A program made the position numbers and the translations under genes. The notes below the pieces were generated by a model. It did no database searches and was not told where the DNA came from. It worked only from the letters and a program-made list of their open reading frames with translations. Below, one piece after another: positions 5,629 to 21,660 of a stretch of DNA of 34,297 nt (position 1 is the stretch's first letter; every line of letters begins with the position of its first letter). Source of the stretch: a virus; the IMG/VR virus record IMGVR_UViG_3300008012_000010; one strand, 5' to 3'.

Positions 5629-6829
5629 AACAGACGCAATCATCAAAGCACAGCCAATCAGATTCTTTGATGAGTTTGACACAGAGCTGATTGATGAAAC
5701 TGATCTTGCTCAGTTTGCAGTTTTATATAAAACAACAGACTTGATCAAGTTTCAAACCAAGCAAGTCAATGAACTTTGGTACAATCAAAAATTCACTGAC
5801 AACAATCAACCATCAAATCTCACAAACTGGTCACAATACAACTCTGGTGTTGACTCATCATGGTCAGTGAGCTTGTGCAGTGGTGACAACTCATTCACAG
5901 TCTCAAAAAGCTCTGGCTCAAACTCAACAGTTCTATATCAGCAGCTTGAATTGACAAATGGCTCTTGGTATAGATTCAAAATAGATGTGTGTGCATTTGC
6001 CACATCTGATCTTGATCTTGAGATACAGACATCAGCCAATGGTGCTGCTGGTGGTTGGACAGAGAGAGCTGCAATCACTATCAACACAACAGGAGAGCTT
6101 GAGACATTCTTTCAATGGACTGGTGGAACTGGTGCTGTTGATGTTGGTTTCCAACTCACATCTGCTGGCACAGCCACAGCATTGCAGATGACAAGAGTGA
6201 GATTGCAAGAGATTGACATGATTCTTGTGAAATGCAGTGATGAGAGTGAGATTGCAATCACTGCTGAGACAATGGATGAGAATTACATCACTTTTGAAAT
6301 CAATGCATTGACTGAGAATCTTGATGAAAACACACCATATTATTTCAATTCCAACACATCTGCTGGCATTGGAAAGTCAGTTCAATTTATCATCACTGAT
6401 GAAAAGTTCTATCAGATGCAATTCTCACACACTGGTGATGGTGTTTTTGGATTGAAATGGTCAGACATCAGCTCAAGCACATTGACATTTGGACTCAAGA
6501 AATTGCAAGTTGGTCAAGCTGTATTTGAAAATGAAGATGGTCAGACATATCAAAACAGCTCTGAGCAATGGCGCAACTTGTACAGCCAGATCAATAAAAA
6601 AGTGACTATTGCAACAGATGTTGTGCCTTGGTATGTCCATGAATGTTTGGCATATTTGACAAATGTGAACAATTTCACCATTGAGCTGAATGGCGATTCA
6701 AGAAGATTTGTCAAGACTGCTGATGAATATTCACCAAATTATAATGGTTATGAGCAAGCTGCTGTCTCATTCACTTGCTATGAGGCAGAGCAATCAACAG
6801 GCATTGTGAAAAACTCTGGAAATATTTAG
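5621..6829 (+). CDS. Tail-tip protein with a carbohydrate-binding-module-like central region (402 aa; host-recognition candidate)
   Basis: 8-nt overlap with the previous gene. The segment WSQYNSG...SWYRFKIDVCAFATSDLDLEIQTS...GWTERAAITINTTGELETFFQWTGG resembles CBM/galactose-binding-like jelly rolls. Followed by a terminator. Confidence 0.4.
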   Translation: MSKTDAIIKAQPIRFFDEFDTELIDETDLAQFAVLYKTTDLIKFQTKQVNELWYNQKFTDNNQPSNLTNWSQYNSGVDSSWSVSLCSGDNSFTVSKSSGSNSTVLYQQLELTNGSWYRFKIDVCAFATSDLDLEIQTSANGAAGGWTERAAITINTTGELETFFQWTGGTGAVDVGFQLTSAGTATALQMTRVRLQEIDMILVKCSDESEIAITAETMDENYITFEINALTENLDENTPYYFNSNTSAGIGKSVQFIITDEKFYQMQFSHTGDGVFGLKWSDISSSTLTFGLKKLQVGQAVFENEDGQTYQNSSEQWRNLYSQINKKVTIATDVVPWYVHECLAYLTNVNNFTIELNGDSRRFVKTADEYSPNYNGYEQAAVSFTCYEAEQSTGIVKNSGNI

Positions 6830-6899
6830 TACATTTGATTTCTGATTTTATTCATAGCCCAAAAGTTCATTCTTGAAATTTTCTTAATGCCCAAAGAAA

Positions 6900-6928
6900 G
6901 TCAGCTCACCCAGAGTTGACTTTTTTTT
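6900..6928 (+). terminator. Rho-independent terminator closing the terL-to-tail-tip unit
   Basis: Stem gtcagctc / gagttgac (8 bp, one G-U pair), loop accca, followed by eight T (6921-6928). Confidence 0.8.
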
Positions 6929-6929
6929 A

Positions 6930-6937
6930 TATTTTTG
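6930..6937 (+). promoter_or_regulatory. Bacteroidota-type -7 promoter box TAnnTTTG (tatttttg)
   Basis: Exact TAnnTTTG directly after the terminator in a 190-nt non-coding gap, 84 nt upstream of ATG 7021. Confidence 0.4.
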
Positions 6938-7020
6938 TCAAAGCTGAATGAAAGTGGCTTGATCTCACCAGCCATCAGAAAAGGTGAATAATTTTTTTTC
7001 AAATTCTAAAATTCAAAAAA

Positions 7021-7569
7021 ATGAGTTTAGAAAAATATTGCTTTGGTGAGATTGGAGATCATGAAGTGATTTGTGGAAATGAAAGATTGTTTGGTGGCAT
7101 CAAGTCAATTGCTTTGATCAAACCAAATCAAACAACAATCACTGATTTCACATCCAATGCTGAGTGGGATGCTGCAATTGCAGATGGCTCAGTCAAAATC
7201 ATCAAGGAAATAAGAGGCGAATATGCTCAAGCATCAGAGACAACATCTGAATCTGAGGTTGCTGGATTGCCAGACAGAGTTGATTCTTTCTCTCATGTGC
7301 TTACATGGAGAGACAGAGCAGTGACTGCTGGAAATTCAACTTTGTATGATGACTTGAATGAGTACACTGCTGGTGGAGTTGTATGGTATGAGCCAAAAAA
7401 CAGCACCATCAAGATTGTTGATGCAATTGATGTGAATTTCATGGCAAAACTTGAAGTTCTTGCAGATGACAAGACAGTTCAAGTGTATGCTGCACAAGCA
7501 ATGTGGGACACAATCAAGTTGCCAGTGCCAAGTGCTGCACCATCTAATGCAGATGAAATCTTTGATTGA
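7021..7569 (+). CDS. Virion structural protein (182 aa); possibly the major tail protein
   Basis: Track ORF and first gene of a new transcription unit (terminator plus promoter box upstream, A-rich leader). No catalytic motif. The tail-tube assignment is a guess from size and expression context. Confidence 0.35.
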   Translation: MSLEKYCFGEIGDHEVICGNERLFGGIKSIALIKPNQTTITDFTSNAEWDAAIADGSVKIIKEIRGEYAQASETTSESEVAGLPDRVDSFSHVLTWRDRAVTAGNSTLYDDLNEYTAGGVVWYEPKNSTIKIVDAIDVNFMAKLEVLADDKTVQVYAAQAMWDTIKLPVPSAAPSNADEIFD

Positions 7570-8417
7570 TGAGCAAAGAACAAAATATGGTTTCTCAAGG
7601 AGTCACATTGATGGCTTTTGGGAAACCTATTTTCTTTGAATTTGCATTCAACATGGCTTTGAGTTTGAGAAAGCACTCACCAAATGTGCCAATTCAGCTC
7701 ATACATGATCATTACATCAAAGAGCTTGGTGACAGAGCAAAAATCTTTGATGTGCTGACAGACATCAGTTCTCAAGCATACACAGACAACAAACGCATTC
7801 AAGCTGGCAAAGGCAAGCTCTCAATGTATTCACTTTTGCATTTTGATGAAACATTGTATCTTGATGTTGATGGTGTTGTGTTGCAAGACATCTCACCATT
7901 GTTTGATCAAGAGCAAGATTTCAAGATCCAAAAAGATGCAATGCACTGGGTTGATGATCATGATGGTGTTGCGAAGCAATACAACTTGAAAGAGCAAGCA
8001 ATTGGTTGCAACTCATCAATCATGTTTGTGAGAAAGAGCAAGACAACAAAAAAACTCTTTGTTGATGCTTTGAAAGCTATTGATGAGCCATTTGAAAACA
8101 TGGCAACAGAGTGGTTTCATGGTATGCATCCAGATGAGTTGTATCTTGGCATCTCAATGAGCAAGAACAATCTTGCTGATGTTTACTTTGAGACAAGGTT
8201 TCCAGTCTATTTTCAAAGGAGAATTGACTATCATATCAACAAAAGTGTTGATGATGTAAAAAAAGACTTTTTTGTTCTTGGTTGCTATGGTAACCACAGA
8301 TACAATCACAGATTTGTGTATGATTTGTATCAGAGAGAGAACAGATCAAACTGGAGAGAGATCATTGGAATGTCACCAAGAAAAGACATTCACAAACTTA
8401 TGAGATATAAACACTGA
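7569..8417 (+). CDS. Glycosyltransferase, GT-A fold, GT8-like (282 aa)
   Basis: ATG 7569 overlaps the upstream TGA (TGATG); the track start at 7566 is TTG. VTLMAFGKP..., KLSMYSLLHFDETLYLDVDGVVLQDISPLF with a DxD motif, as in the glycogenin/LgtC-type nucleotide-sugar transferases. Confidence 0.6.
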   Translation: MSKEQNMVSQGVTLMAFGKPIFFEFAFNMALSLRKHSPNVPIQLIHDHYIKELGDRAKIFDVLTDISSQAYTDNKRIQAGKGKLSMYSLLHFDETLYLDVDGVVLQDISPLFDQEQDFKIQKDAMHWVDDHDGVAKQYNLKEQAIGCNSSIMFVRKSKTTKKLFVDALKAIDEPFENMATEWFHGMHPDELYLGISMSKNNLADVYFETRFPVYFQRRIDYHINKSVDDVKKDFFVLGCYGNHRYNHRFVYDLYQRENRSNWREIIGMSPRKDIHKLMRYKH

Positions 8418-8479
8418 TGAAACTGAATTTGAACAAGAGCAACAAACGCAAAGGTTGTGGTTGCGGAAAAAAGAAATAA
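8417..8479 (+). CDS. Possible 20-aa basic micro-ORF (MKLNLNKSNKRKGCGCGKKK)
   Basis: ATG overlaps the upstream TGA (TGATG). TAA 8477-8479 is followed one nt later by the portal ATG 8481. It exactly fills the intergenic gap. Confidence 0.2.
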   Translation: MKLNLNKSNKRKGCGCGKKK

Positions 8480-8480
8480 A

Positions 8481-10469
8481 ATGGTTTTTGATGAAACACT
8501 GATTGATGATCTGCTGAGTGGTGTTGTGATACCATATGCAGAGACTGTTCACAAGAGCAAAGAGTGGACAGATGAAAGATATTCTCATGCTGTTGAGTTG
8601 TATGAAAAAGTGAAAGTGCATTCACAGCTTGACACATTCCCAGATGTCTTGATCAGTGAATCAGCACCAAATGAGACTCAAGAGGAGTTTGACTACAAAA
8701 GAGCCACATATCAGCCAATCACAAGACCAGTGTGGAAAAAGGCAACCACACAGATCAACAGAATTTTCAATCCACAAAACTACTCAATCACTGACTGGGG
8801 CAATGACTCTGGTGTATATGCTGATCAATCTGCTGAGGCATATTTCACAAAAGACTTTCCAAAATTCAACTCTCTCATGAGTTATTTTGAAAACATTGTC
8901 AAGCCAGCAAAAGATGAGGATGCCAATGCAGTGATTGCACTTGACTTTGTTGATGCAGAGATTGTTGATACAGAACTTGTTGAGCCAATCTTTGTGCTGT
9001 ATCACTCACCAAAAGTGATTGACATCAACAGTGAGATGGCATTGCTGCTGATGAGTGAAAAGTCTCTGGTTGAATATGGCAACAGAAAAGAGCAATCTGG
9101 TTTGATTTTCAAACTATATGACCATAAAAACATTTGGATTCTCAAGCAAATTGGCAAAAAACTTGATTATAAGTTTGAGGCTGTTCTTTATTATGAGCAT
9201 AATCTTGGCAAATTGCCAGTTCAGATGCTTGGTGGTGAGGCAAAAACACAAGACAGAGCAATTTGGTATGAGAGTCTCTTCATGGATGCAGTGCCAAATC
9301 TTAATGATGCTTTAATTGATGCAACAAATTTGAGAGTGAACAAGGTCTCAAATGTATTCATGGAGCGCATTGAGTGGGTTGATGAGTGTGACTTTGATGG
9401 CTGTGTTGATGGATATGTCATCAATGAGAATGGTGAGCAAAAGAGTTGTCCATCATGCAATGGATCTGGAAAGAGATCAATGCAATCACCATTGAGAGTG
9501 ACTCAAGTGCAAGTGCCAAACAGAATGAATGACTCTGAGCCATTGCCATTTGATCCAGTGACTTATGTCAAGAAAGACTCATCAATGATTGATGCATTGA
9601 GAAATGAAGTGAATCACAATGTTGCTGTGTCATTCTCTTTCATGGGCATTGAAATCAGCTTGGACAAAAAGAGTGGCAAAGAGACAGCAACAGGCAAGTT
9701 GATTGATCGTGAGGAGCTGTTCTCATTTATTTCAAAGTATTCAAATCAGATGTTCAATCTCATCAAGTGGGGAATTGACATTCTTGGCAATGTGAGATAC
9801 ATTGATTTTCAATCACCATCAGTCAAGCCACCAGTGAGCTTTGCTTTGCGATCAGAGACAGACTTGAGTGCTGAGTTGAGAGATTCACAAAATTTGCCAG
9901 ATGCAATCAGAGGTGAAATGACCAAAGAGCTGATGAGTGTGAGATTTGCAAACAATGACAAGCTGAAAATGACTGTTGATCTCAAGCAAAAGATTGATAA
10001 CTATTACTTGCAAAGCACAACTGATGTGATTGCTATCATGGCAACTGGCTTGTTGCCTAAATGGAAAGCCACATTGCATTGGTCATTTGACACATATATC
10101 TCACAAATGGATGACAGCTTTTGGTCTTTGACATTTGATCAGCAAAGAGAGATGCTTGAAAAGATGGCACAAGATGAGACAAATTCAAATGTCATGACTG
10201 CACAAACCATCTTTGACAATGATATTGATGACATTGCTGGTGATGATATTCCAGAGAATGTTGATATTGAGAGTGAAGCAAAAGCAAGACTCAAGGGATC
10301 TGTTGGTGGTGTGCAAGGTGTGCTTGGCATTCAAGAGTCAGTTGCTCAAGGCATCACACAATACAGTGCTGGTCTTGCATTATTACAGGAGATTTATGGC
10401 TTTGATGACAAAACTGCAAGAGCCATTCTTGGAGACCCAAAGAGAATAGTGAATGGCATCACTGAATGA
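8481..10469 (+). CDS. Putative portal protein (662 aa)
   Basis: First ATG within track ORF 8457..10469. The size, and the position directly upstream of a Mu F/SPP1 gp7-like head protein, fit a portal. Contains an internal CxxCxGxG zinc-finger-like motif. No family recognised by eye. Confidence 0.5.
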   Translation: MVFDETLIDDLLSGVVIPYAETVHKSKEWTDERYSHAVELYEKVKVHSQLDTFPDVLISESAPNETQEEFDYKRATYQPITRPVWKKATTQINRIFNPQNYSITDWGNDSGVYADQSAEAYFTKDFPKFNSLMSYFENIVKPAKDEDANAVIALDFVDAEIVDTELVEPIFVLYHSPKVIDINSEMALLLMSEKSLVEYGNRKEQSGLIFKLYDHKNIWILKQIGKKLDYKFEAVLYYEHNLGKLPVQMLGGEAKTQDRAIWYESLFMDAVPNLNDALIDATNLRVNKVSNVFMERIEWVDECDFDGCVDGYVINENGEQKSCPSCNGSGKRSMQSPLRVTQVQVPNRMNDSEPLPFDPVTYVKKDSSMIDALRNEVNHNVAVSFSFMGIEISLDKKSGKETATGKLIDREELFSFISKYSNQMFNLIKWGIDILGNVRYIDFQSPSVKPPVSFALRSETDLSAELRDSQNLPDAIRGEMTKELMSVRFANNDKLKMTVDLKQKIDNYYLQSTTDVIAIMATGLLPKWKATLHWSFDTYISQMDDSFWSLTFDQQREMLEKMAQDETNSNVMTAQTIFDNDIDDIAGDDIPENVDIESEAKARLKGSVGGVQGVLGIQESVAQGITQYSAGLALLQEIYGFDDKTARAILGDPKRIVNGITE

Positions 10470-11370
10470 TCTCATTGAGCAAAGGTCAGCCAACATTGAC
10501 AAGCTACCAAATGAGCTATTTGGAGCAATAGAGAAAGCACAGAGAGATGTGATGAGACAAGTGTCAATTCTCATCAATCAGCTTGAGACAAATGCATCTG
10601 GTCAAGTAATTCTTAACACAAAGAACATTGCACTCATTGAGAAAATTGGTGCAAGAGCAAATGATGTGTTGTTTGGTGGATCATACATTGATGCAGTGAG
10701 AGATTTTGCTGGCTCTCTTGAGCAACAAGGTGCATTGGCTGCTGAGTACATGACAACAGCTTTTGGCACTTTTGATGACAAGAGAATCTTTCAACAAGTG
10801 CTGAGACAATCACAACTTGATGTGTTGGCATTATTAGATGAGCAAGCAGTGAATCAAGCACTCATTGAGCCACTGAAATCAGCATTGAGAGACTCTGTCA
10901 CATCTGGAGCAAGACTCACTGATGTCATTCAATCAGTGCAGCAGATTGTTGTGGGCAATGAGCAAGTTGAGAGCAATCTGCTGGGCAACAGAAAGACACT
11001 TGTGAGAGATACTTTTGCAGCGAGTGACAGAAGGTATCAAAAAACAATTGAGTCTCAATACAGCTTTGATTTTTACAGATACAGTGGTTCACTGGTGAGT
11101 GACTCAAGATGCTTTTGTCAAGAGAGACAAGGCAAATACTATCACAAGAGAGAAATTGAAAGTTGGGGAGCTTTGCAAAATCTTGGCAAATGTAGAACAT
11201 CAAATGGCTGGCAAGGTCGCAGAAAAGGCACAACACCAGCAACTATTTTCACATATGCTGGTGGATACAATTGTGATCATGTCTTTGCTGCTGTGCCAAT
11301 TGAAGCAGTGCCACCATCAGCAATTCAAAGAGCAAGAGGTCTTGGTTATTTGCCACCAGAAGTTGAATAA
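10453..11370 (+). CDS. Head morphogenesis / minor head protein (Mu F, SPP1 gp7-like; 305 aa)
   Basis: 17-nt overlap with the portal-like gene. The Cys/His-containing C-terminal region SRCFCQERQGKYY...YAGGYNCDHVF resembles the conserved C-terminal motif of the Mu F family. Confidence 0.55.
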   Translation: MASLNDLIEQRSANIDKLPNELFGAIEKAQRDVMRQVSILINQLETNASGQVILNTKNIALIEKIGARANDVLFGGSYIDAVRDFAGSLEQQGALAAEYMTTAFGTFDDKRIFQQVLRQSQLDVLALLDEQAVNQALIEPLKSALRDSVTSGARLTDVIQSVQQIVVGNEQVESNLLGNRKTLVRDTFAASDRRYQKTIESQYSFDFYRYSGSLVSDSRCFCQERQGKYYHKREIESWGALQNLGKCRTSNGWQGRRKGTTPATIFTYAGGYNCDHVFAAVPIEAVPPSAIQRARGLGYLPPEVE

Positions 11371-11378
11371 TAAATTTA

Positions 11379-11386
11379 TATATTTG
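11379..11386 (+). promoter_or_regulatory. Bacteroidota-type -7 promoter box TAnnTTTG (tatatttg) within aaatttatatatttg
   Basis: Exact motif in the 36-nt gap, 21 nt upstream of ATG 11407. The same tttatatatttg core recurs at 32537-32548. Confidence 0.45.
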
Positions 11387-11406
11387 TCATTAATAAAACA
11401 AACCAG

Positions 11407-12036
11407 ATGACAAAAATTTGCTACTCATACCTTTTTGGTGACAAAGATGTGTGGCGTGATCCATTGCCAGACAACATCAACCATGACTGGACTTATGTGC
11501 TTTTTACAGATCAAGACATCAAGTCTGATGTGTATCAAGTCAAGAGAGTTGAGTCAGTGAGCAATCCACAACTTGCATCAAGACATTTCAAGTTGCTTGG
11601 TGCAGCTCAGTTTTATCCAGAGCCATTCAAAAAAGTGTTTCATCATGATGCAAACATCAGAGTCAATTGTGATCTTGATGAGTTGCCACATTTCATGATT
11701 GTCAATCATCCATTTCATCATTGTGCCTACAAAGAAATTGAGCTTTGCAAAAAGCTTGGCAAAGCAAACAGAGCTGATCTTGAGAGAGCAAGATTGATGT
11801 TGAGAGAGTACAGATGGAACAAAGATGCTGGCTTGTATGCTGCTGGTCTGATGATGCGACCAAACACAAGAGCTGTTGACATATTCTCATTTGATTGGTT
11901 TCATCATGCAAAATGGTTCACTCACAGAGATCAGATTTTCTTGCCATACTTGCTTGACAAGCACAACATGACTCCAGAGATTGTTGAGTGGAGTGACTTG
12001 ATTGGTTCAAGATTTTTAATACATGACCATGCATAG
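11407..12036 (+). CDS. Putative glycosyltransferase (DUF616-like, 209 aa)
   Basis: The pattern ICYSYLFGDKD...WTYVLFTD...NPQLASRHFKLLGAAQFYP...VFHHDANIRV resembles the DUF616 glycosyltransferase-like family. First gene of the enzyme block. Confidence 0.4.
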   Translation: MTKICYSYLFGDKDVWRDPLPDNINHDWTYVLFTDQDIKSDVYQVKRVESVSNPQLASRHFKLLGAAQFYPEPFKKVFHHDANIRVNCDLDELPHFMIVNHPFHHCAYKEIELCKKLGKANRADLERARLMLREYRWNKDAGLYAAGLMMRPNTRAVDIFSFDWFHHAKWFTHRDQIFLPYLLDKHNMTPEIVEWSDLIGSRFLIHDHA

Positions 12037-12631
12037 ATGGCAAGTGATCAATCACTATTTAAAAACAAAATTTGAGAATAGTGATCCAAAATACCTTGAG
12101 ATAGGCATTCACAATGGTGACAACTTTCTCAAAGTTGAGTGTGCTGACAAGACTGGCATTGATCCATCACCAATATACAAGAGCAACAGAATCTTTCAGA
12201 TGACCAGTGATGATTTCTTTGATAGCAATGAGCAAGTGTTTGATGTGATTTTCATTGATGGATTGCATGAACGAGAGCAAGTTGAGAAAGATTTCTGGAA
12301 TGCGTTTCAATGCTTGAGCTTGGATGGAATTATCATCTTGCATGACTGCTCACCAAGAGTGTATTTTGAGACAGTTGTGCCAAGACCAAAGCCAATTGGC
12401 AGATGGAATGGTGACACATACAAAGCATGGATAAAGATCAGAGAAATATTTCCACAAGCAACATTCACCATTGCAACTGATGAGGGTCTTGGTGTTTTCC
12501 TTAATTCATTGAATCAAATTAATGATCAAGGTCAATGGTCTGGTCATCATGTCACTTGGGATGAGTACAAGAAAAAAAGAGCATTATTGCTCAATGAAAT
12601 CAGTCTTGATGCATTTAAAAGCTTAATTTGA
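12023..12631 (+). CDS. Class I SAM-dependent methyltransferase (TylF/CmcI-like sugar O-methyltransferase type, 202 aa)
   Basis: SAM motif I YLEIGIHNGDN, then FDVIFIDGLHEREQVEKDF...LSLDGIIILHDC. 14-nt overlap with the upstream gene. Confidence 0.7.
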   Translation: MTMHRWQVINHYLKTKFENSDPKYLEIGIHNGDNFLKVECADKTGIDPSPIYKSNRIFQMTSDDFFDSNEQVFDVIFIDGLHEREQVEKDFWNAFQCLSLDGIIILHDCSPRVYFETVVPRPKPIGRWNGDTYKAWIKIREIFPQATFTIATDEGLGVFLNSLNQINDQGQWSGHHVTWDEYKKKRALLLNEISLDAFKSLI

Positions 12632-13185
12632 TGAAACAATCAAAGACTCAAGTGAACTTTGTGTCACCATATTGTGCAGACAAGCAGCTTGCAACAGAAT
12701 ACAACAGAATTGTTGACAAGTATGATGATGATGAGTGGCTTTGCTTTGTTGATGCTGATGTCATGTTCTTGACATCAAACTTTGGTCAACATATTCAAGC
12801 CATCATTGATGCCCACTCAAGAGATTTCACTGCATTCACTTGCATGACCAACAGAGTTGGACAGCTCAAGCAATGTCATGCAAGAGAGATGTCAAACAAC
12901 TTTGATGTCTTGCATCATGTGAAAATTGCAGAGAAAAAACAAAGAGAGTCTGGTCTTGGAGTTGTAGAGATGAAACCATTCAGCTTGCTCTCTGGCTTGT
13001 TTATTTGCGCCAAAGTATCAACATTCAAGAGAGTGCCATTCAAAGGTGCTGGAATGCTTGGTATTGATAATAGATGGCACAAAGACTTGTACACAAAAGG
13101 TGGCAGACTTGGCTTGATGCTTGGTGTGTATGTCTTTCACAGATACAGAAATCAAAATCCATCAGATAAAAGTCATTTGAAATGA
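12631..13185 (+). CDS. Glycosyltransferase, GT-A/GT2-like (184 aa)
   Basis: ATG 12631 overlaps the upstream TGA (the track start at 12628 is TTG). DDDEWLCFVDADVMFL contains a DxD motif. Confidence 0.5.
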   Translation: MKQSKTQVNFVSPYCADKQLATEYNRIVDKYDDDEWLCFVDADVMFLTSNFGQHIQAIIDAHSRDFTAFTCMTNRVGQLKQCHAREMSNNFDVLHHVKIAEKKQRESGLGVVEMKPFSLLSGLFICAKVSTFKRVPFKGAGMLGIDNRWHKDLYTKGGRLGLMLGVYVFHRYRNQNPSDKSHLK

Positions 13186-13805
13186 AAATCACATATATTG
13201 ACATAGGTCTGCACAAGGATGGCTTTGAAATTGATATGTTTCAACTTGCTGCACTTGGTCATGATGTGACCATGTATGGCATTGAAGCTCATCCAGAATA
13301 TATTGAGCAATTGAAAGATAATCATCCACAAGCAAAGATTCTCAACTATGCAATCAACAACACAGAGAGATTGTTGCCATTGTATTTGAGTGAGTCAAGT
13401 GATGGTCATGGCAACTCGATATTTCCAGACAAGAACAATGTGACAACAGACTTTGTGAAAGTGCAAGGTGTGAAACTTAGCACTTTGATTGAAAGAAAAG
13501 AGATTGTCTTGAGTGATTTCAATGTGCTGAGGTACAACATTGAAGGTGCTGAGTGGCATCTGCTCAATGATTTGATTGAGAGTGAATTGTGGAACAAGTT
13601 CAACATTCTTTCTGGAGCAAGATCAGATATGCACAAGGTGACTCACTTGAAAGATTTGAAATGGCAATATCAAACTTTGGTGCTTGGATCTGGCAAATGG
13701 GTTGATTTTTGGTATCATCCACAACAGCAAAAGCGAAATAAAAAGATGATTGAAAAAATGAAAAGCAGAATCAATGAAAGAATTGACATTCCATCAAATA
13801 GTTGA
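13182..13805 (+). CDS. FkbM-family methyltransferase (207 aa)
   Basis: ATGA overlap upstream. YIDIGLHKDGFE, MYGIEAHPEYIEQL and VLRYNIEGAEWHLLNDL match the FkbM-type pattern (xDxGAxxG ... EP ... KxDxEGxExxxL). Confidence 0.6.
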   Translation: MKITYIDIGLHKDGFEIDMFQLAALGHDVTMYGIEAHPEYIEQLKDNHPQAKILNYAINNTERLLPLYLSESSDGHGNSIFPDKNNVTTDFVKVQGVKLSTLIERKEIVLSDFNVLRYNIEGAEWHLLNDLIESELWNKFNILSGARSDMHKVTHLKDLKWQYQTLVLGSGKWVDFWYHPQQQKRNKKMIEKMKSRINERIDIPSNS

Positions 13806-14430
13806 CAAGCTGCAAAAGCTTGAGCCATTTCACTTTGCCAGAGTTGGTGATGGTGAGATGATGTGCATGGCTGGAAAGCAAGGCAAGAATTGCGATGATC
13901 ACAAATACTTTGTTGATCTTGGTCAAGCATTGAGAGCAATATACAAAAAAGAGCAAGACTATTTTGTTGGATTGCAGCCAGTCAAACATGATCTTTTCAC
14001 TGACTTTGACAAGTATCCTCAGCAGTGGTGCAATGCAGATGTGTTGCATGATGCATCAATCAAGGGATGGATGCCAGCACTCTTTCATGCTTTGAGCAAT
14101 AGAAATGTGGTGATGATTGGCAATCATTCACTTGCAAAGCTCAATTTCATCAATGTCATGGTTGAGATACCAAAAAAAAATGCATGGCAAAAGAGACAAG
14201 AGATTTGGTCACATCTCAAGCAAATCATTGCAGAGCATTTTGACAAAAAGCTTGTGCTGTTGTTTAGTGCTGGCATGATGTCTGGTGTTCTCATTGATGA
14301 GATTGCAAACAATGAGCAAATCAACAGATTAGTGACTACAATTGACACTGGCAGCTTGTTTGATCCATATGTTGGCAAAACAACAAGATCATATCACAAA
14401 CAGATAATTGAGAGAGAGAATGCATCTTGA
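13774..14430 (+). CDS. Putative GT-D (DUF1792)-like glycosyltransferase (218 aa)
   Basis: The N-terminal FHFARVGDGEMMCMAG resembles the RFGDGE signature of DUF1792/GT-D enzymes. 32-nt overlap upstream. Contains an A9 run at 14172-14180. Confidence 0.4.
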   Translation: MKELTFHQIVDKLQKLEPFHFARVGDGEMMCMAGKQGKNCDDHKYFVDLGQALRAIYKKEQDYFVGLQPVKHDLFTDFDKYPQQWCNADVLHDASIKGWMPALFHALSNRNVVMIGNHSLAKLNFINVMVEIPKKNAWQKRQEIWSHLKQIIAEHFDKKLVLLFSAGMMSGVLIDEIANNEQINRLVTTIDTGSLFDPYVGKTTRSYHKQIIERENAS

Positions 14431-15142
14431 CCCAATAGTGGTGAGCATTGCAACTCACAATGCAAGACGAGAACATTTGCCAAAGACCATTGAATCAATC
14501 AAGCAGTCTGTTGTGCCAGTTGAAATCAATATTTGGCACAATGAGCCATCTGACTATGAATTGATTGATGGAACAATCAATCATCTTGCTGATGCAAATC
14601 ATGGTGCAAGATCAAAGTTTCTTGAGCAGCATTTGACACCATATTCACACTATTATTTCACTTGTGATGATGATCTGATCTACCATCCACAATATTTTGA
14701 GACACTTGCTCTCAAGCTCAAGCAAAAGAATCACAGATGTGTTGCTGGTGTTCATGGATCATATTATCTCAAGCATCCTGTTGATGATTACTTTTGGAAT
14801 CAAAAAGTGGTTCACTTTTCTGCTGAGATCAAAAATGACCAGTTTGTGACCATGCTTGGCACTGGCACAATGGCTTTTCACTCATCACTCTTTGATGATG
14901 TTGATTTGTTTTCATACATTGGTGATGATTTCAACAACATGGTTGATGTCAAAGTTGCAGAGCTGTGCATTAACAGAGAGATTCCAAGACTCTGCATTCA
15001 AAGACCAAAGAACTTTGTCAAAGAGCAAGACAACTCACAAGAGTCAGCCATCTGGCACAAAGCAGCCAAAAGTGCTGAGAGACAGACTGCTGTGTTGAAT
15101 GCCATTGACAAGAAAAAATTCATGTATAGACCAAAATGTTAA
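14420..15142 (+). CDS. Glycosyltransferase, GT-A fold (240 aa)
   Basis: First ATG within track ORF 14408..15142. IVVSIATHNARREHLPKTIESI and YYFTCDDDLIYHPQYF (DDD/DxD motif). Confidence 0.55.
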   Translation: MHLDPIVVSIATHNARREHLPKTIESIKQSVVPVEINIWHNEPSDYELIDGTINHLADANHGARSKFLEQHLTPYSHYYFTCDDDLIYHPQYFETLALKLKQKNHRCVAGVHGSYYLKHPVDDYFWNQKVVHFSAEIKNDQFVTMLGTGTMAFHSSLFDDVDLFSYIGDDFNNMVDVKVAELCINREIPRLCIQRPKNFVKEQDNSQESAIWHKAAKSAERQTAVLNAIDKKKFMYRPKC

Positions 15143-15147
15143 ATTTG
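15140..15147 (+). promoter_or_regulatory. TAnnTTTG box (taaatttg) overlapping the stop of the last glycosyltransferase
   Basis: Exact motif 7 nt upstream of ATG 15154. Confidence 0.35.
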
Positions 15148-15153
15148 TAAATT

Positions 15154-15570
15154 ATGAATATGAAAATCAATAAGCATGACAACAAGAAGTTTGTCAGAAT
15201 AGCAAAAGGAAACAAAGTGCAAAATGATGTTGCACTCTCTGCTGCAAAGAGATTGGTTCACAAAGGATGGTCAATTGAGAGTGATCAATATGATCAAAAT
15301 GGCTTTCCAAGACAAAAACACATTGAGCAAGACATACCAGTTGCCAATATTCAAACATTTGCTGAGTCAAAAGCTGATCAGACTGATGAGCAAGATGTTG
15401 AAGTGTTTGAAGCATCAGAGCCAGAGATTGATCAAGATGAGCTTGATGAGATCAAGACAACCATCATGAGAGCAAGATCAAAGTCAAAACTTGAAGCTCT
15501 CAAAGTGATGCATGGTCATATCTTTGAAGTGAATGAGTTAATAAATGAGCGTTTAACCAAATACAAATAA
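15154..15570 (+). CDS. Hypothetical acidic protein (138 aa)
   Basis: Track ORF. Basic N-terminus, then an acidic central stretch TDEQDVEVFEASEPEIDQDELDE. Upstream of the scaffold gene. Confidence 0.55.
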   Translation: MNMKINKHDNKKFVRIAKGNKVQNDVALSAAKRLVHKGWSIESDQYDQNGFPRQKHIEQDIPVANIQTFAESKADQTDEQDVEVFEASEPEIDQDELDEIKTTIMRARSKSKLEALKVMHGHIFEVNELINERLTKYK

Positions 15571-15575
15571 AACAA

Positions 15576-16403
15576 ATGAGTGATTTGAACAAAATTCTGG
15601 AGGAGCTTGGCGATGATGAAAAAGCACAAGCTATCAAAGCAGCAATTGATGAAAACTATGTTGGCAGAAATGTGGCACATGAGGACAAGCAGATTGTTGG
15701 CAAAATAGTTGGCAAGACTCTTGGCTCTTTTGAAACAAAACTCAAGAGATCAATCAAAGGCATTGATGAGAATCTGATCAAGCCAACAGAAGTGGATGAG
15801 CTTGGCTTTGAGAAAGCCTTTGATGCAGCATTTGATAGGCTGCAAAACAAGTTTGCTGAGTTGAATCAACAAGCAAAGTCATCTGGTGCAACAGACAAGG
15901 AAATCAAAGCACAGCTTGATGAAATCTCTGGCAAGTACAACAAAGCAGTGAGTGACTTGAATGCAATCTCATCTCAAAAGTCAAACATTGAGCAAGAGCT
16001 TGAGAAAAACAAATCAGAGTTTCAGAATTACAAAGTTGGATTGCAGCTCAATAGTAAAAAGCAAGCAGCTCTCAAAGAAGTTGATTTCACTGACACTTTG
16101 CAAGGCAAAGCCAAAGAACTTGCCATCAAAGGTTTTCTTGATGACATTCAATCAAAATACAACATTGAGCTTGATGACTCAGATGCAAGTGGATTGAGAA
16201 TCACAGACAAGAATGGTCAGAGAGTAGCAAAGGACAACAGATTTTTGACTCTCTCTGAGATTTACAAAGATGAGGCAAAGCAAGCTGGTCTGCTCAAGAT
16301 GAGTGCTGGTCAAGGCAATTCAAAAAAATCAATTATATTTGACAACATTAAATCTGGAGATGCTGATCAAAATGCTCAAGGCTTAAAGATCAAATCCAGA
16401 TAA
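15576..16403 (+). CDS. Scaffolding protein (275 aa)
   Basis: Highly charged Lys/Glu/Gln-rich sequence with predicted coiled-coil character. Lies directly upstream of the major capsid gene. Confidence 0.6.
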   Translation: MSDLNKILEELGDDEKAQAIKAAIDENYVGRNVAHEDKQIVGKIVGKTLGSFETKLKRSIKGIDENLIKPTEVDELGFEKAFDAAFDRLQNKFAELNQQAKSSGATDKEIKAQLDEISGKYNKAVSDLNAISSQKSNIEQELEKNKSEFQNYKVGLQLNSKKQAALKEVDFTDTLQGKAKELAIKGFLDDIQSKYNIELDDSDASGLRITDKNGQRVAKDNRFLTLSEIYKDEAKQAGLLKMSAGQGNSKKSIIFDNIKSGDADQNAQGLKIKSR

Positions 16404-16507
16404 ACATTCAGCAACAAGTGAGTTGACTCTCAGAAAAAAGTCAAGTGTGCTGGCAAGCAGAAAATTGCAAAACAATTTTTTTCAAACAGTTAAAAACTTG
16501 ATTTAAA

Positions 16508-17557
16508 ATGAGTTATACTATCAATTCACTTGTTGAGTGCGAAAATGTACAAGCAGCACTTGATGAAAACTTTTTTGGTGCAGCATCTGGAATGTTCAAC
16601 CAATCAAATCCTTTTCTTGACTATGTTGTTGGTGATGAGAATGCCAAAGTAGGTGTTCAAGAGCCATTGACAGCAAGAGGCAAGCTCAAAGGTGTGACAG
16701 TCAAATACTTCAACAGATACCTTGAAACTGACAATGATTTTGTTGGTAGCAATTCAAATGATTGCACTGGTGGTGGAGAGTTGACTGAGAATTTCTACAC
16801 ATATGATCTTGATGAGACAGAAGGTGACTCAATCAAGAAATCAATTCCAATCACTGACTTGGTGACTGGTTGCCAAGATGATGCAACTTATGTTGGACAG
16901 CAAATACAAATGATGATCAATGTGCTTGAGAGAAAAATCAACACAGATGGCATCACACAAGCTGCTGCTCTTGTTGGTAATTTCAGAAGCACTGGAAACT
17001 CAAATGCAATCACTGTTGATGCAAAAAACACAGATGGTGCATGGGTGACCAACTTGATTGAAGATGTTCAATATGAGTTCACTGACATGGAGTACAATGA
17101 CAAGATTGTTGCCATTGGTGGATCAAAACTTTGGAGTCAATACTGGTCAGCAATTGGTGCTGGTTGTTGTATTGACAAAAAAGGAATTGATCAAGGTGCA
17201 TTGGCTGCTGGCACTCGAATCATGCCGATCTATGACAGAAAGATTGATGACATTGTTGGAGCAGAGAGATTCTTTGCATTTGCACCAGCAGCCATTCAAA
17301 TGTTGAAATACAACAGATATGGTCATGGCTCACCAGCAAGAGAGATCACACAAGCTGACACAGTTGTTGGCACAGTGACATCTCCATTCTCTGGCTTAAC
17401 CTTTGACTATCGTGCAAAGCTTGAGTGCGAGACTTGGAACTTTTTTGTTGGTTTGACTTACAAATTCGTAGTTGCACCAGATGATCTATTTGATGTAAAT
17501 GATGACATGAGTGGTGTGAACTTGTTCAACCAGTTCACTGCTCAAATAGCATCATAA
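16508..17557 (+). CDS. Major capsid protein (349 aa)
   Basis: Follows the scaffold gene and is followed by a strong hairpin. Size is typical of HK97-fold capsid proteins. Family not recognised by eye. Confidence 0.65.
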   Translation: MSYTINSLVECENVQAALDENFFGAASGMFNQSNPFLDYVVGDENAKVGVQEPLTARGKLKGVTVKYFNRYLETDNDFVGSNSNDCTGGGELTENFYTYDLDETEGDSIKKSIPITDLVTGCQDDATYVGQQIQMMINVLERKINTDGITQAAALVGNFRSTGNSNAITVDAKNTDGAWVTNLIEDVQYEFTDMEYNDKIVAIGGSKLWSQYWSAIGAGCCIDKKGIDQGALAAGTRIMPIYDRKIDDIVGAERFFAFAPAAIQMLKYNRYGHGSPAREITQADTVVGTVTSPFSGLTFDYRAKLECETWNFFVGLTYKFVVAPDDLFDVNDDMSGVNLFNQFTAQIAS

Positions 17558-17589
17558 AAGCTACTCCAGAGGGTTTTGTTTTATTTAAT

Positions 17590-17618
17590 GGGATGCATGG
17601 TCATTGATTGTGCATCCC
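17590..17618 (+). terminator. Stem-loop after the capsid gene (possible terminator or mRNA stabiliser)
   Basis: Perfect 8-bp stem gggatgca / tgcatccc with a 13-nt loop. No clean U-tract (taaaatataaaag follows). Confidence 0.5.
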
Positions 17619-17634
17619 TAAAATATAAAAGTTT

Positions 17635-18675
17635 ATGTCATTGATTTCTTGCTTGGACAATCTTGTTGATATTGTTGGAAACTGCTCTAATACAAGACAG
17701 AGTGGTGTGATGTACCTTGATGATATTGGTATCAGCTTACAAGATGTGACTGATGGCAATGATATTGATGAGAATGCATCATCATTGGTCAATAACAAAA
17801 TTGGCTTTTGTCAGCAGATCATCAAGAATCATGTTGAGACACATTTCAATGGCAAGCTTGAGCGCAACACAGTTCTCTCAAATGGTGTTGCTGGCTATTA
17901 TCAAGAGAATAGAGTTGAAGAGAGTCACACTGCTGACACATTAGGTGGCTTGTTTTTAGAGGTCAACAAATATCCATATCTTGAAATCTACATTGACAAA
18001 GTGAGAATATTCACAAAAGATGCTGAGACATTTGATCTCAAAATCTTTGATGTGATGACTGGTGCAGAACTGTTCACTCAATCAGTGACAACCAATGCTG
18101 GCACAATCACAGATGTTGATGTTGATCAGACATTCAAAACAGATGGACAAAAAACTCAGCTTTTCATTGCTTATCCTCAGCAGAATGTGACAACATACAG
18201 ATCACAAATCAGCCAAAGAGGATGCAGTTCATGCATATTTGGTTCAACTTATGATGGTTTTATGCACAGACAAGGTGCAACAATTGGCTCATCAGAGACA
18301 TTGAGCAAGAGCAATTTGAATCTTGGTGGTCAGACTCAAGGTGTGTCAATCATCTACTCATTGAATTGCAGCTTGGACAACTTTGTCTGTTCAATCAGAA
18401 ACAGACTACAATATTCATTGCTCTATTTGGTAGGTGCAAAACTGGCTGAGGAGATATTATTCTCCAAGAATCAAAACTCAACCACTATCATCTTTCGAGG
18501 TGATGCTCGTGAAATGATGGAAAGATTCGAGAGTGAATACAACATGGCAATGTTTGGTGCATTTGATGATAATGGCAGAAAGATCAAAAAAGGTTTGCTT
18601 GATCAGATCGCATTGCCAAATGACATTTGTTTCAAGTGCAAAAAGACTGTCAAGAGAAAAGTGATGATACCATGA
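17635..18675 (+). CDS. Hypothetical virion protein (346 aa)
   Basis: Track ORF, first gene after the capsid hairpin. C-terminal CFKCKK. No family recognised. Confidence 0.5.
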   Translation: MSLISCLDNLVDIVGNCSNTRQSGVMYLDDIGISLQDVTDGNDIDENASSLVNNKIGFCQQIIKNHVETHFNGKLERNTVLSNGVAGYYQENRVEESHTADTLGGLFLEVNKYPYLEIYIDKVRIFTKDAETFDLKIFDVMTGAELFTQSVTTNAGTITDVDVDQTFKTDGQKTQLFIAYPQQNVTTYRSQISQRGCSSCIFGSTYDGFMHRQGATIGSSETLSKSNLNLGGQTQGVSIIYSLNCSLDNFVCSIRNRLQYSLLYLVGAKLAEEILFSKNQNSTTIIFRGDAREMMERFESEYNMAMFGAFDDNGRKIKKGLLDQIALPNDICFKCKKTVKRKVMIP

Positions 18676-19746: not shown

Positions 19747-20136
19747 ATGGCAAGCTTAACTCAGTATTTAGAAGATCAGATTTTGAATTGGTTGAAAGGC
19801 TCAACCTTTGCATCAGCACCAACAAATGTCTATGTTGATTTACTTGATGGATCTGGAAACTCAATTCTTTCAACAATCACTGGATCAGCAAACAGACAAT
19901 CAATCACATTTGGCACAATCACCACAGATGGCACTGGCAGAATCATGGCAAATTCAACAGACATCACATTCACTGCAAGTGCAGTTGGTGGAGCAACAGC
20001 AGTGTCTGCAAGTGTACATGATGCACAGACTGGTGGCAATGAGTTGGCAAGAGAAACTTTGGCATCAAGCAAAACGATTTCTGCTGCTGATGAGGTGAAA
20101 TTCTCTGCTGGCAATTTGACATTTAAAATGGACTAA
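19747..20136 (+). CDS. Conserved small phage structural protein (129 aa)
   Basis: An N-terminal YLEDQILNWLKG motif followed by Gly/Thr/Ser-rich beta-type sequence. Lies immediately upstream of the fibre gene (TAA then ATG). Confidence 0.5.
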   Translation: MASLTQYLEDQILNWLKGSTFASAPTNVYVDLLDGSGNSILSTITGSANRQSITFGTITTDGTGRIMANSTDITFTASAVGGATAVSASVHDAQTGGNELARETLASSKTISAADEVKFSAGNLTFKMD

Positions 20137-21195
20137 ATGAGATGTTGCAAAGGCAAGTTTAACAGATTTAAGTTTGGCAACATTGCGATTGGTTTTGGTA
20201 ATCTTCGCAAAACCAATGACACTGGCAGAGGTTTGAGAGTCAGATTCAACGGAGTTGGTTCTCTTTTTGGTCAATTGGCTGGTAGTTTGAGAGATTTCAG
20301 TGCTGATTTTGTTGGCTCTGGATCTTTTAGTGCTGATTTAAGCAACATTAAACAGCTTGATGCAAGCATTGCTGGTCAAGGAACATTGACTGGTGATTTG
20401 GCTGATTTTGTTGGTTTGCTTGATGATTACCCAAACGCAGCAGCAGCTTATTCTGTTCGTTTGTTAAGCGGTTCTTATACAGGAGCATTAGTCAGAATTA
20501 GAAAAGACACAGGAGGTCAGCCAGAGAAGGATTTCTATCCAGATGAAAATGGTGAGTTGAGTCTTGACAGTGAAGATGGTGGAAACACAAGGCTTGGCAA
20601 TTGGATTGGAAGCAACGATGGTTATCTTGTGACATGGTACTCACAGGCTGGCATAAGTGGGCGAGATGTGACCAACTCAACGGCAAGTACGCAACCAAAA
20701 TTATTAACTGCTGGAGTTTTTGAAACCAACGACAACGGAAATATAGCGGTAAATTATGCAAGTGGTAATTTCTTGAGAGTGACTGGTGTCACAGGAATAA
20801 GCACAACTAATGTTGAAGTTTATACTGTTTTCGAAAATGACTCTATTAGGGGAGTGCTGTTTTACAGCCCTAACTATATTTATTTTCAATCTGGCGACGC
20901 ATCAAGCGCGTTAAGTGGTGTTGGTTCGCCGTCGTTGAGAATTAATGGTGCTGATGATGGAGCAATAACAAGTAGAGCAAATCTATATACGAGTGTAGGA
21001 ACAACGACAAAACTTTTTGGAGTAAGGGATATTGTCCCTACTGCTTATAGTGAAATTAATGTTTTGCAATTTGGGGCAGCCGCTATTCCACAAATATGCT
21101 TTTTAAGTGAATACATTGTTTGGGATAGTTCACAGAGTGGCAACAGAACAGGAATAGAAACTAATATTAATGACTTTTTTAACATATATCCATAA
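20137..21195 (+). CDS. Tail fibre / receptor-binding protein with a lectin (AbfB/ConA-like) C-terminal domain (352 aa)
   Basis: N-terminal G-x-G-x-L type repeats (GSLFGQLAGSL, GSGSFSADL, GQGTLTGDL). Then YPNAAAAYSVRLLSGSYTGALVRIRKD...LVTWYSQAG...TQPKLL, a motif set common in phage fibre tips. Confidence 0.6.
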   Translation: MRCCKGKFNRFKFGNIAIGFGNLRKTNDTGRGLRVRFNGVGSLFGQLAGSLRDFSADFVGSGSFSADLSNIKQLDASIAGQGTLTGDLADFVGLLDDYPNAAAAYSVRLLSGSYTGALVRIRKDTGGQPEKDFYPDENGELSLDSEDGGNTRLGNWIGSNDGYLVTWYSQAGISGRDVTNSTASTQPKLLTAGVFETNDNGNIAVNYASGNFLRVTGVTGISTTNVEVYTVFENDSIRGVLFYSPNYIYFQSGDASSALSGVGSPSLRINGADDGAITSRANLYTSVGTTTKLFGVRDIVPTAYSEINVLQFGAAAIPQICFLSEYIVWDSSQSGNRTGIETNINDFFNIYP

Positions 21196-21413
21196 TGTAT
21201 TATATAGGCACAAAATCACAGGTTCAATATTACATCAGCAAGGTTGATGATGCTGAACAATACAATGGTACAACATCTACATGGGCAACACCTTTGCAAT
21301 CATTTGAAGATTCGGAAAAGTATGCTGTTGTTAAACATAATAATTATGAACACAGCAATATGACTTTAAGCGAATCTTTGCCAGATGAGTTTATAAATAA
21401 TGAATTTGAATGA
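21195..21413 (+). CDS. Hypothetical 72-aa protein (possible fibre-associated factor)
   Basis: TAATG overlap with the fibre stop. Lies within the atypically composed stretch that begins in the fibre C-terminus (only 2 CG within the ORF itself). Confidence 0.4.
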   Translation: MYYIGTKSQVQYYISKVDDAEQYNGTTSTWATPLQSFEDSEKYAVVKHNNYEHSNMTLSESLPDEFINNEFE

Positions 21414-21660
21414 TAATGTTAATTTTTTTACTATGGAAAAAGAATACATTGAAAAGCTTGACACTGTACATGAAAAAGTGAATGACATTCACAAGGCTTT
21501 GGTTGGAAATGATTATCATGATGGCTTGATTTCAAAAGTGAATGACATTGAAAAAACTCAGAACACTGCAAAAAGATACTTTTGGATGGGTGCTGGTGGT
21601 GTAGGTTTGGGAGCTGTTCTCTCACATTGGAAAACAATCAAAGGATTTTTTGAATTATGA
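21400..21660 (+). CDS. Membrane-anchored lysis-cassette protein, holin-like (86 aa; alternative start ATG 21433)
   Basis: Single C-terminal TM segment YFWMGAGGVGLGAVLSHW. ATGA overlap with the endolysin start. Confidence 0.4.
   Translation: MNLNDNVNFFTMEKEYIEKLDTVHEKVNDIHKALVGNDYHDGLISKVNDIEKTQNTAKRYFWMGAGGVGLGAVLSHWKTIKGFFEL

Follow-up and report, generated by a model that had tools for sequence, protein, structure and literature searches.

A conserved, head-linked block of predicted glycosyltransferase and methyltransferase genes in a small phage: a candidate system for virion glycosylation

The enzyme block and its predicted products

The virus genome recorded in IMG/VR as IMGVR_UViG_3300008012_000010, a stretch of 34,297 nt analysed at its full length and called the window here, carries a compact block of six genes for predicted sugar-modifying enzymes, embedded among genes of the virion. 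The six open reading frames (ORFs) all lie on the + strand, at 11407-12036, 12023-12631, 12628/12631-13185, 13182-13805, 13774-14430 and 14408/14420-15142, and we denote their products enzymes A to F in that order. Successive ORFs overlap by 14, 1-4, 4, 32 and 11-23 nt, and the gaps separating the block from the flanking genes are just 36 and 11 nt. A first-pass annotation, made by reading the sequence, had described this co-oriented, overlapping arrangement; it was reproduced in our ORF list, and all the motifs quoted at that time are present in the translations. A seventh gene, encoding a GT8-like protein (7566-8417, + strand), is set apart from the block by the genes of the portal and of a Mu-F-like protein. 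Together the seven genes occupy 4588 of the 34174 unique nt (13.4%), in agreement with the initial estimate of about 13%. Judged by their homologies they appear to form a glycan-assembly set of five glycosyltransferases and two methyltransferases. We consider glycosylation of the virion to be the best reading of their function, and hold it with even confidence.

Enzyme F (14420-15142 from the later of its two starts, + strand; 240 amino acids (aa)) is by profile comparison a clear homologue of the GT45-type alpha-GlcNAc transferases KfiA and PmHS2. We describe it as a GT45-like retaining GT-A glycosyltransferase because a profile of 5 orthologues matches both of these heparosan alpha-1,4-GlcNAc transferases, PmHS2 (PDB 8vh7) over its residues 302-526 with E 8.6e-31, and KfiA of Escherichia coli K5 (5z8b) with E 1.8e-18. 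The alignment spans query positions 6-225, or ~220 residues, and includes the DDD motif; the sequence FTCDDDLIYH does not vary among the 5 orthologues, and its counterpart in the PmHS2 alignment reads 'yyiTCDDDiiY'. KfiA and the C-terminal domain of PmHS2 are members of CAZy family GT45. The match of F to Pfam GT2 is below cut-off. The first description of F as a GT-A enzyme was correct, but too general. F differs from KfiA and PmHS2 in standing alone, with no recognisable partner resembling the glucuronyl transferase KfiC or the N-terminal domain of PmHS2, and no capsule export machinery. A word-indexed search returned 8 homologous proteins.

Enzyme C (12631-13185, + strand) is predicted to be a minimal (~180 aa) GT2-like glycosyltransferase of GT-A fold. 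It matches phrog_14179 ('glycosyltransferase') with E 2e-29, and an AlphaFold model calculated from a 62-sequence alignment has a predicted local distance difference test score (pLDDT) of 93.9 and a predicted TM-score (pTM) of 0.89. Foldseek gave a probability of 1.0 and a TM-score normalised to the query (TMq) of ~0.5 for the GT-A enzymes 2z86, 2ffv, 8bz7 and 7sp8. The nearest solved structures, K4CP (the K4 chondroitin polymerase), ppGalNAc-T2, RmlT and HAS (the hyaluronan synthases), are all of this fold, as had been proposed for C from its motif. D41 and D43 of the DxD motif are invariant across the 62 sequences.

Enzyme E (13774-14430, + strand) is a predicted DUF1792-like glycosyltransferase of GT-D fold. 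It scores 33.3 bits against PF22882 (GT-D-like; cut-off 27), with NF040628 below cut-off, and its profile aligns with the founding GT-D structure, 4phr (dGT1/GalT1), with E 2.2e-4 in two stretches that bring the GDGE motifs together. D26, G27 and E28 of this motif are invariant; the paper describing the dGT1 structure is said to have defined an N-terminal, metal-binding D-x-E motif for this fold. The dGT1/GalT1 enzyme belongs to the glycosylation system of a streptococcal serine-rich-repeat adhesin, in which the O-glycan of a protein is elongated in the cytoplasm. The likeness of E to it lies in fold family and GDGE motif; the similarity is weak (E 2e-4), and here there is neither a GtfA/B-type initiating enzyme nor an evident serine-rich acceptor.

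Two further glycosyltransferases are assigned from partial matches. Enzyme A (11407-12036, + strand) is a putative glycosyltransferase of the DUF616/TOD1_MUCI70 family, PF04765. The first proposal of a DUF616-like enzyme agrees with a score of 26.5 bits, above the cut-off of 21.4, but the match is limited to positions 190-290 of the 314 in the profile. Homologues of A in other phage loci receive the same Pfam call, and a profile of A gave nothing significant against PDB sequences. The GT8-like protein is a candidate retaining GT-A enzyme. The first-pass annotation had labelled it GT8-like, and its matches are consistent with each other but weak: Pfam Nucleotid_trans and Mannosyl_trans3 are reached with E ~1e-3, below cut-off, and the profile comparison with the GT8 structures Skp1 alpha-GalT (6mw5, E 2e-3), glycogenin and LgtC ranges from E 2e-3 to 0.3, mainly in the DxD region. 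Its DVD motif is invariant.

The remaining two enzymes are predicted S-adenosylmethionine (SAM) methyltransferases. Enzyme B (12023-12631, + strand) is a class I enzyme of the Methyltransf_24 (TylF/CmcI/COMT-like) family, scoring 36.6 bits against PF13578 (cut-off 26.3), with conserved SAM-binding E-I-G motif and D79/H82 block. Its profile finds COMT-like O-methyltransferases in the PDB (6g7d, E 5e-5; 8k1f, E 9e-4) and not DNA methyltransferases. No DNA-methyltransferase family match backs the PHROG label 'DNA methyltransferase' for B, which is probably a sugar O-methyltransferase. Enzyme D (13182-13805, + strand) is an FkbM-family enzyme, scoring 32.5 bits against PF05050 (cut-off 22.7) and 40.0 against TIGR01444 (cut-off 37.7). 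Thus the families first proposed for B, D and E are each supported above the Pfam cut-off.

Organization of the unit

Reading frames overlap or abut from 7021 to 17557, a unit that takes in the GT8-like gene, the portal, the block and the probable capsid gene, all on the + strand. It is preceded by a terminator-like hairpin at 6893-6927 (+ strand), with a 15-bp stem and a T-run, which is the sole strong + strand site of this kind within 6800-17700. Over the whole window terminator-like sites are no more numerous than in shuffled sequence, and a scan for sigma-70 promoters and terminators also gave no excess over the shuffled expectation; the boundaries of the operon therefore rest on gene spacing. 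The Bacteroidota -7 box, TANNTTTG, occurs 27 times genome-wide against 23 expected, which is not above chance. Matches to TANNTTTG fall in short + strand intergenic gaps at 6930-6937, 11379-11386, 15140-15147, 23501-23508 and 277-284, and one such match, TATATTTG, precedes the start of gene A by 21 nt, a promoter hint only.

Domain scans covered all ORFs of at least 128 aa and most of the smaller ones. Among these we found no initiating phosphoglycosyl transferase, flippase, polymerase, ligase or Gtr-type membrane protein, and there is no convincing transmembrane segment in the enzymes, a borderline hydrophobic stretch in E aligning to a core strand of the GT-D fold. Nor was there an integrase domain or lysogeny module, or any thymidylate-synthase-like, TGT-like or dioxygenase domain, or base hydroxymethylase. 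The initial view that the context is neither one of base modification nor one of integration or lysogenic conversion is consistent with these scans. Serotype conversion of the GtrABC type does not fit, with neither membrane Gtr proteins nor integrase in the scanned ORFs, and lysogenic conversion was rejected because its defining genes are absent from them.

Conservation, residency and exchange in relatives

The block is retained in relatives of the same lineage found in IMG/VR and in Logan assemblies, which we call L005, L008 (IMGVR_UViG_3300025759_000275), L011, L012 and L024. In all five the gene set lies between the portal and Mu-F-like genes and those of scaffold and capsid. The order and location of A, B, C, E and F are unchanged, with 72-37% identity, even where capsid identity has fallen to 63%, so that the synteny put forward at the outset as a check is borne out. 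L005 and L011 likewise retain the GT8-like gene ahead of the portal. In comparison with L005 the enzymes have a ratio of non-synonymous to synonymous rates (dN/dS) of 0.15-0.29, comparable to the 0.13-0.21 of portal, Mu-F-like and scaffold proteins, while head proteins in general range over 0.09-0.21; the values are approximate given that dS is saturated at this distance. The block is under purifying selection, and is a long-resident and selectively maintained part of the genome.

Base composition gives a second measure of residency. The dinucleotides of the window are strongly biased, with observed/expected ratios of 0.10 for CG (121 CG in 34 kb), 0.31 for TA, 0.47 for CC, 1.80 for CA and 1.77 for TG. 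The close relatives L008 (0.09) and L005 (0.155) share the CG depletion whereas the distant same-order relatives L011 (0.78) and L012 (0.85) do not, from which it follows that the depletion arose recently and is peculiar to this lineage. The excess of CA and TG resembles a signature of deamination or CG avoidance, and restriction or methylation directed at CG in the host may be the cause. One gene stands out as a 'CpG island', that at 20137-21195 (+ strand), which holds 24 of the 121 genomic CG and has a ratio of 0.61. It shares 52% identity with the corresponding gene of one relative, in which the neighbouring genes are 96-100% identical and the small gene downstream, at 21195-21413, is 86% identical. 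In L005 it is conserved in the N-terminal 91 aa only; it looks like a recently swapped gene for a tail fibre or receptor-binding protein. Near-normal CpG thus coincides with sharp divergence, and CpG content can therefore serve as a residency clock. The ratio for the block is 0.065, and for its single genes 0.04-0.10, like the core genes. By this clock the block is old in this genome, and the first-pass annotation was right that it is not a recent insertion.

Within this stable framework two sites are mobile. The fourth slot is occupied by the FkbM-type enzyme D here and in L024, by a paralogue of B in L005 and by a Methyltransf_11/23/25 enzyme in L011. Since the slot is always filled by some SAM enzyme, the function of a second methyltransferase is retained while its identity is exchangeable among three unrelated types. 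The second site is the junction of E and F. In L008, a near-identical relative, a CcrM-like N6/N4 DNA methyltransferase gene (L008:15668-16387) is inserted between the orthologues of E and F, and the allele of F there has 84% aa identity and a dS of 0.235, compared with ~0.06 for its neighbours; insertion and diverged allele together mark the junction as a recombination hotspot. In L012 it carries an extra ORF of 85 aa.

The E/F junction bears on a different explanation of the block, in which the enzymes modify some other cytoplasmic target, a non-virion molecule of host or phage (for example a defence or translation protein, scaffold, chaperone or small molecule), or make a free oligosaccharide, and their place among head genes is an accident of a permissive site. 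A junction at which relatives have acquired small ORFs or a DNA methyltransferase, and recombination as seen in the dS of the L008 allele, would suit such a site, as would the differing position of the cassette in other phages (below). Yet seven enzymes, or 13% of a 34-kb genome, kept by purifying selection in deeply diverged relatives would be a high price for a single regulatory modification, and three unrelated phage groups make use of this slot. We think this explanation improbable, though not negligibly so.

The enzyme families in other phages

How general is this set of enzymes? A profile search with C collected 167 proteins and 80 IMG/VR loci. Using iterated hidden Markov models of each family, built locally, we screened the ORFs that these loci contain, and considered the 47 non-redundant loci that lie outside the lineage of the window. 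Within 6 kb of C the A family (including fusions) is present in 25 of the 47, the B family in 16 and the E family in 11. Members of the A, B, C and sometimes E families are thus found side by side in about half of these loci, an association that is new here. Cassettes of other phages additionally carry genes for pyruvyl transferase, polysaccharide deacetylase, Stealth proteins and epimerases. In an expanded island of ~10 kb (L020, IMGVR_UViG_3300032401_000025, positions 1641-11606) members of the B, A, E, D and C families lie upstream of an SU10-type capsid gene, together with a Polysacc_synt_2 4,6-dehydratase and a DegT-type aminotransferase forming a PseB/PseC-like pair, a further methyltransferase and a Stealth-like protein. 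From these homologies a phage-encoded pathway to an amino-deoxy-sugar appears to be attached to the cassette. Pfam annotation of 99 proteins flanking the cassettes gave protease (5), portal (2), capsid (2) and TerL (2-3) as the commonest neighbours unrelated to glycans.

A reduced version exists in cultured phages. Three siphoviruses of Cellulophaga baltica, phi12:1, phi17:1 and phi18:1 (Helsingorvirus), have a B-like protein, gp39, and an A-C fusion, gp40. In phi12:1 (NC_021791.1, 20545-22217) gp39 matches the B profile with E 3e-29, and gp40 matches A and C with E 1e-59 and 3e-57, A corresponding to its N-terminal half. The gene order is Mu-F gp36, gp39, gp40, protease gp46 and capsid gp47. 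These are therefore true homologues, in a slot between Mu-F and the protease and capsid genes, in phages of a Flavobacteriia host; they have one methyltransferase and two glycosyltransferase domains, and are without the GT-D, GT45-like, FkbM and GT8-like enzymes of the window. The published annotations are 'DNA methyltransferase' for gp39 and 'glycosyltransferase' for gp40, and by its homology to B the former is probably misassigned. A 2025 study of phi18:1 (PMC11946311) noted a glycosyltransferase and a methyltransferase in the structural module and, by way of conjecture, suggested only the modification of lipopolysaccharide (LPS) or DNA. The novelty first claimed is narrower than stated, given the reduced version already present in the Cellulophaga phages and the co-occurrence of the core families in many IMG/VR phages. 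A tblastn search of 50,697 GenBank phages with A, E and F found no match.

The Cellulophaga phages also bear on the host. The best cultured matches of C are in these phages, and residues 462-659 of the portal protein match the portal of Flavobacterium phage tant8-1 (E 3e-6), all eight portal matches (8/8) being from Flavobacterium phages. On this basis a Bacteroidota host, as first suggested, is plausible, and the phage probably infects Flavobacteria-like bacteria.

Comparison with known glycosylation systems

To our knowledge, phage-encoded virion glycosylation has been demonstrated so far only in a few actinobacteriophages, where the glycans shield the particles from antibodies. Freeman and colleagues reportedly described, in 2023, virion glycosylation cassettes in the mycobacteriophages Corndog, Che8 and Myrna (cited in PMC12363180 and PMC12619734). 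The essential glycosyltransferase of such systems is represented by gp38 of Corndog and gp110 of Che8. For Corndog, a cluster O phage described as virulent, gp38 is reported to be essential for capsid glycosylation (PMC12363180), and in mycobacteriophages the subunits of capsid and tail tube are reported to bear their glycans at the C-terminus (PMC12619734).

The Corndog genes run in the order portal gp34, gp35 (TylF/Methyltransf_24), gp36, gp37 (GT2-like), gp38 (GT25-like), protease gp39 and capsid gp41. The likeness to the window is one of design: soluble enzymes in a portal-to-capsid slot, with GT-A glycosyltransferases and a Methyltransf_24/TylF-type O-methyltransferase. The glycosyltransferases themselves are different, GT25-like and GT2-like in Corndog but GT45-like, GT-D, DUF616, minimal GT2-like and GT8-like here. 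Corndog has an actinobacterial host and virion glycans proven by mass spectrometry, whereas for the present phage virion glycans are predicted and the host is probably one of the Bacteroidota. B shows no specific homology to gp35 even though the two fall in the same Pfam family. Specific homology is found neither with BLASTP nor in the comparison of profiles, and the resemblance is therefore analogous rather than orthologous.

A comparison can also be made with giant viruses. The capsid of chlorovirus PBCV-1 bears N-glycans with O-methylated sugars, and mimiviruses have gene clusters for fibril glycosylation. The parallel is that a methylated glycan is assembled in the cytoplasm on virion proteins, independently of the host, by several virus-encoded glycosyltransferases together with methyltransferases; the phage islands related to ours also carry pyruvyl-transferase and sugar-nucleotide genes. 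The hosts are eukaryotic, and the genomes are much larger.

The structural genes around the block

The block lies with certainty inside the late structural region, because the region is framed by genes for the large terminase TerL (33126-34297, continuing across the junction to ~240; 430 aa), a tape-measure-like protein (1859-3835), a Gp80-like protein identified with Pfam (19747-20136) and an M15 endolysin found by family scan (21657-22109), all on the + strand. TerL has the Walker A motif GGAGSGKS and in tblastn matches hundreds of annotated terminases. The tape-measure-like protein is followed by virion proteins, and further structural genes, among them that of the Gp80-like protein, come after the unit. 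That the block sits exactly between the Mu-F-like gene and those of scaffold and capsid is suggested by position.

The first gene of the unit (7021-7569, + strand) encodes a conserved acidic protein of 182 aa that is 90% identical in L005 and 100% in L008, with dN/dS 0.08; the domain-library scans found no family match for it. A probable portal protein of 670 aa (8457-10469, + strand) is assigned by its match to the RefSeq-annotated portal described above; it has no Pfam match, and its profile gave nothing significant against PDB sequences. The Mu-F/gp7-like head-morphogenesis protein (10453-11370, + strand) is named by position and its gene is conserved in relatives; hhalign with Mu-F gp36 of Cellulophaga phage phi12:1 gave a probability of 0.2%, and hence no relationship. 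Downstream of the block are a small, mildly acidic and fast-evolving protein (15154-15570, + strand; 25 D+E and 22 K+R), 36-39% identical in L005 and L011 and without a family match, and a scaffold-like coiled-coil protein (15576-16403, + strand), which has Pfam matches of coiled-coil type only and keeps its position in all relatives.

The probable major capsid protein (16508-17557, + strand; 349 aa) is likewise assigned by position. Within the lineage it shows the highest conservation of all proteins (dN/dS 0.085), and its family comprises 524 clusters at 50% identity among 1.84 billion representatives. C11, C86, C122 and C307 are near-invariant, as is CC220-221 within this lineage. Nucleotide and protein searches with the capsid region found no match among the 50,697 GenBank phages.

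What might the enzymes act upon?

The sections above show to which families the enzymes belong, how the operon is built, that it is conserved and under purifying selection, and that the same families recur in other phages; the proposal that follows starts from there. The block and the GT8-like gene would constitute an assembly line of soluble enzymes that makes a glycan in the cytoplasm; late in infection it would share transcription and translational coupling with the head genes. Its substrates would be nucleotide-sugars (UDP-sugars) and SAM of the host; the use of host UDP-sugars is suggested because sugar-nucleotide genes are absent from this genome. The five glycosyltransferases would build a short hetero-oligosaccharide, with the GT8-like and GT45-like enzymes acting as retaining and the GT2-like enzyme as inverting transferases alongside the GT-D and DUF616-family enzymes, and O-methyltransferases B and D would cap it. 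One sugar would probably be an alpha-linked HexNAc, added by the KfiA-like F. The acceptor would most likely be a virion protein, either the capsid or another exposed structural protein, such that particles exit the cell with a methylated glycan coat like those of glycosylated mycobacteriophages, chloroviruses and mimiviruses. We infer the acceptor, the identity of the sugars and the order of steps. Position, timing and analogy point to the virion as substrate, and the argument is strengthened because the glycosylation genes of Corndog occupy the same portal-to-capsid slot.

Several observations weigh against a virion acceptor. The choice of acceptor is argued from position and analogy; of the head-module context first proposed, the late structural setting stood, but the Mu F-like and major capsid labels are without support from Pfam, PHROG or the PDB. 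The former label is positional, with no Pfam or PHROG match for the protein at 10453-11370. The capsid candidate also has no Pfam or PHROG match; its 71-member family gave nothing useful in PHROGs and nothing significant against the PDB, and a model predicted from five sequences has a pLDDT of 28, leaving the fold without support. It has no Ser/Thr-rich terminal extension, unlike the C-terminal glycosylation sites of mycobacteriophages. The idea that the block is an orthologue of the mycobacteriophage system was rejected, as B and C found nothing in BLASTP against Corndog gp35, gp37 and gp38, with hhalign probabilities of 0.4-2.4%. The closest characterised relatives of F (KfiA and PmHS2), which make capsular polysaccharide and not glycans of proteins, and its bacterial homologue P0132 belong to polysaccharide clusters. 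The E/F site accepts unrelated cargo, as the CcrM-like gene in L008 demonstrates. Head genes in the census of 99 flanking proteins are no more frequent than is roughly expected for small genomes. Lastly, the position of the cassette is not universal, because in ESCO5, a Phapecoctavirus of E. coli, a C homologue is accompanied by three more glycosyltransferases and adjoins primase and DNA polymerase genes and not head genes.

The affinities of F lead to the possibility that the enzymes remodel the host envelope, decorating a lipid-linked or surface glycan such as LPS O-antigen, capsule or the precursor of a Bacteroidota O-glycan, which could block superinfection or prevent progeny from adsorbing to debris. 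Its closest characterised homologues are domains of capsule polymerases, and a bacterial homologue (P0132) sits in a cluster of polysaccharide glycosyltransferases. Genes of kinds that typify loci for surface polysaccharides (Stealth, pyruvyl-transferase, deacetylase and epimerase) occur in related islands, and clusters of glycosyltransferase genes in marine phages are usually read in this way (PMC12801897; PMC11946311). Against this, there is no integrase or lysogeny module, and Gtr-type membrane proteins, flippase, polymerase, ligase and transmembrane segments are all missing from the scanned ORFs. Coupling to the late head genes would leave little time for export, and the block is inherited stably with the head module, unlike a moron. 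We regard envelope remodelling as unlikely, if somewhat less so than action on another cytoplasmic target.

The genes of ESCO5 recall that phage glycosyltransferases are classically DNA-modifying enzymes, and the neighbourhood of replication genes there would suit the addition of sugars to modified phage bases as a means of evading restriction. Here the defining genes are absent: the scanned ORFs include no dCMP/dUMP hydroxymethylase, TGT/DpdA-like or dioxygenase gene, and DNA glycosylation was rejected. The genes belong with the head genes in the late and not the early region, and avoidance of CpG and TpA (observed/expected 0.10 and 0.31) suits the avoidance of sites better than blanket hypermodification. 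We know of no DNA-sugar system that combines O-methyltransferases with five different glycosyltransferases. We consider this explanation highly improbable.

Returning to glycosylation of the virion, a broader form of the reading can be considered. The A-B-C(+E) set may be a widespread and previously unrecognised virion-glycosylation system of aquatic phages, including phages of Flavobacteriia, in which O-methylated coats are diversified by swapping tailoring enzymes; we give this a little less than an even chance. The swaps would be seen in the variable methyltransferase slot and in the added pyruvyl, deacetylase and amino-sugar modules, and the window would be among the most complete of the small-genome versions. 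Were the cassette to glycosylate the virions of phages that infect Gram-negative aquatic bacteria, a coat of glycans would be a trait general among phages and open to diversification. This would matter for how particles adsorb to mucus and to marine particles, for grazing and virion decay, and for barriers of host range and phage therapy. It would also bear on the 'auxiliary' glycosyltransferase clusters of viromes, now read by default as modifying host surface or DNA, and the GT45-like, GT-D and DUF616-family enzymes would gain compact soluble representatives. The cultured Cellulophaga phages make the idea directly testable.

Other features of the genome

The final 123 nt of the window (34175-34297) are identical to nt 1-123, and thus the assembly is circularly closed with a unique length of 34,174 nt. 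Every gene in the ORF list lies on the + strand. The late genes have an unusual order, beginning with the terminase and continuing through small ORFs, the tape-measure-like protein and virion proteins to the portal, without the adjacency of terminase and portal. After the endolysin comes the early or replication region, which closes the circle and encodes Erf, single-strand binding protein (SSB), helicase, a Dam-like methyltransferase and a DUF3987 primase-helicase, all on the + strand. A small protein of the Cro/CI type with HTH_3/HTH_19 matches (28838-29161, + strand) is encoded between the Dam-like methyltransferase and the primase. Directly upstream of TerL lies the gene of another small HTH protein (32735-33133, + strand), which is probably the small terminase.

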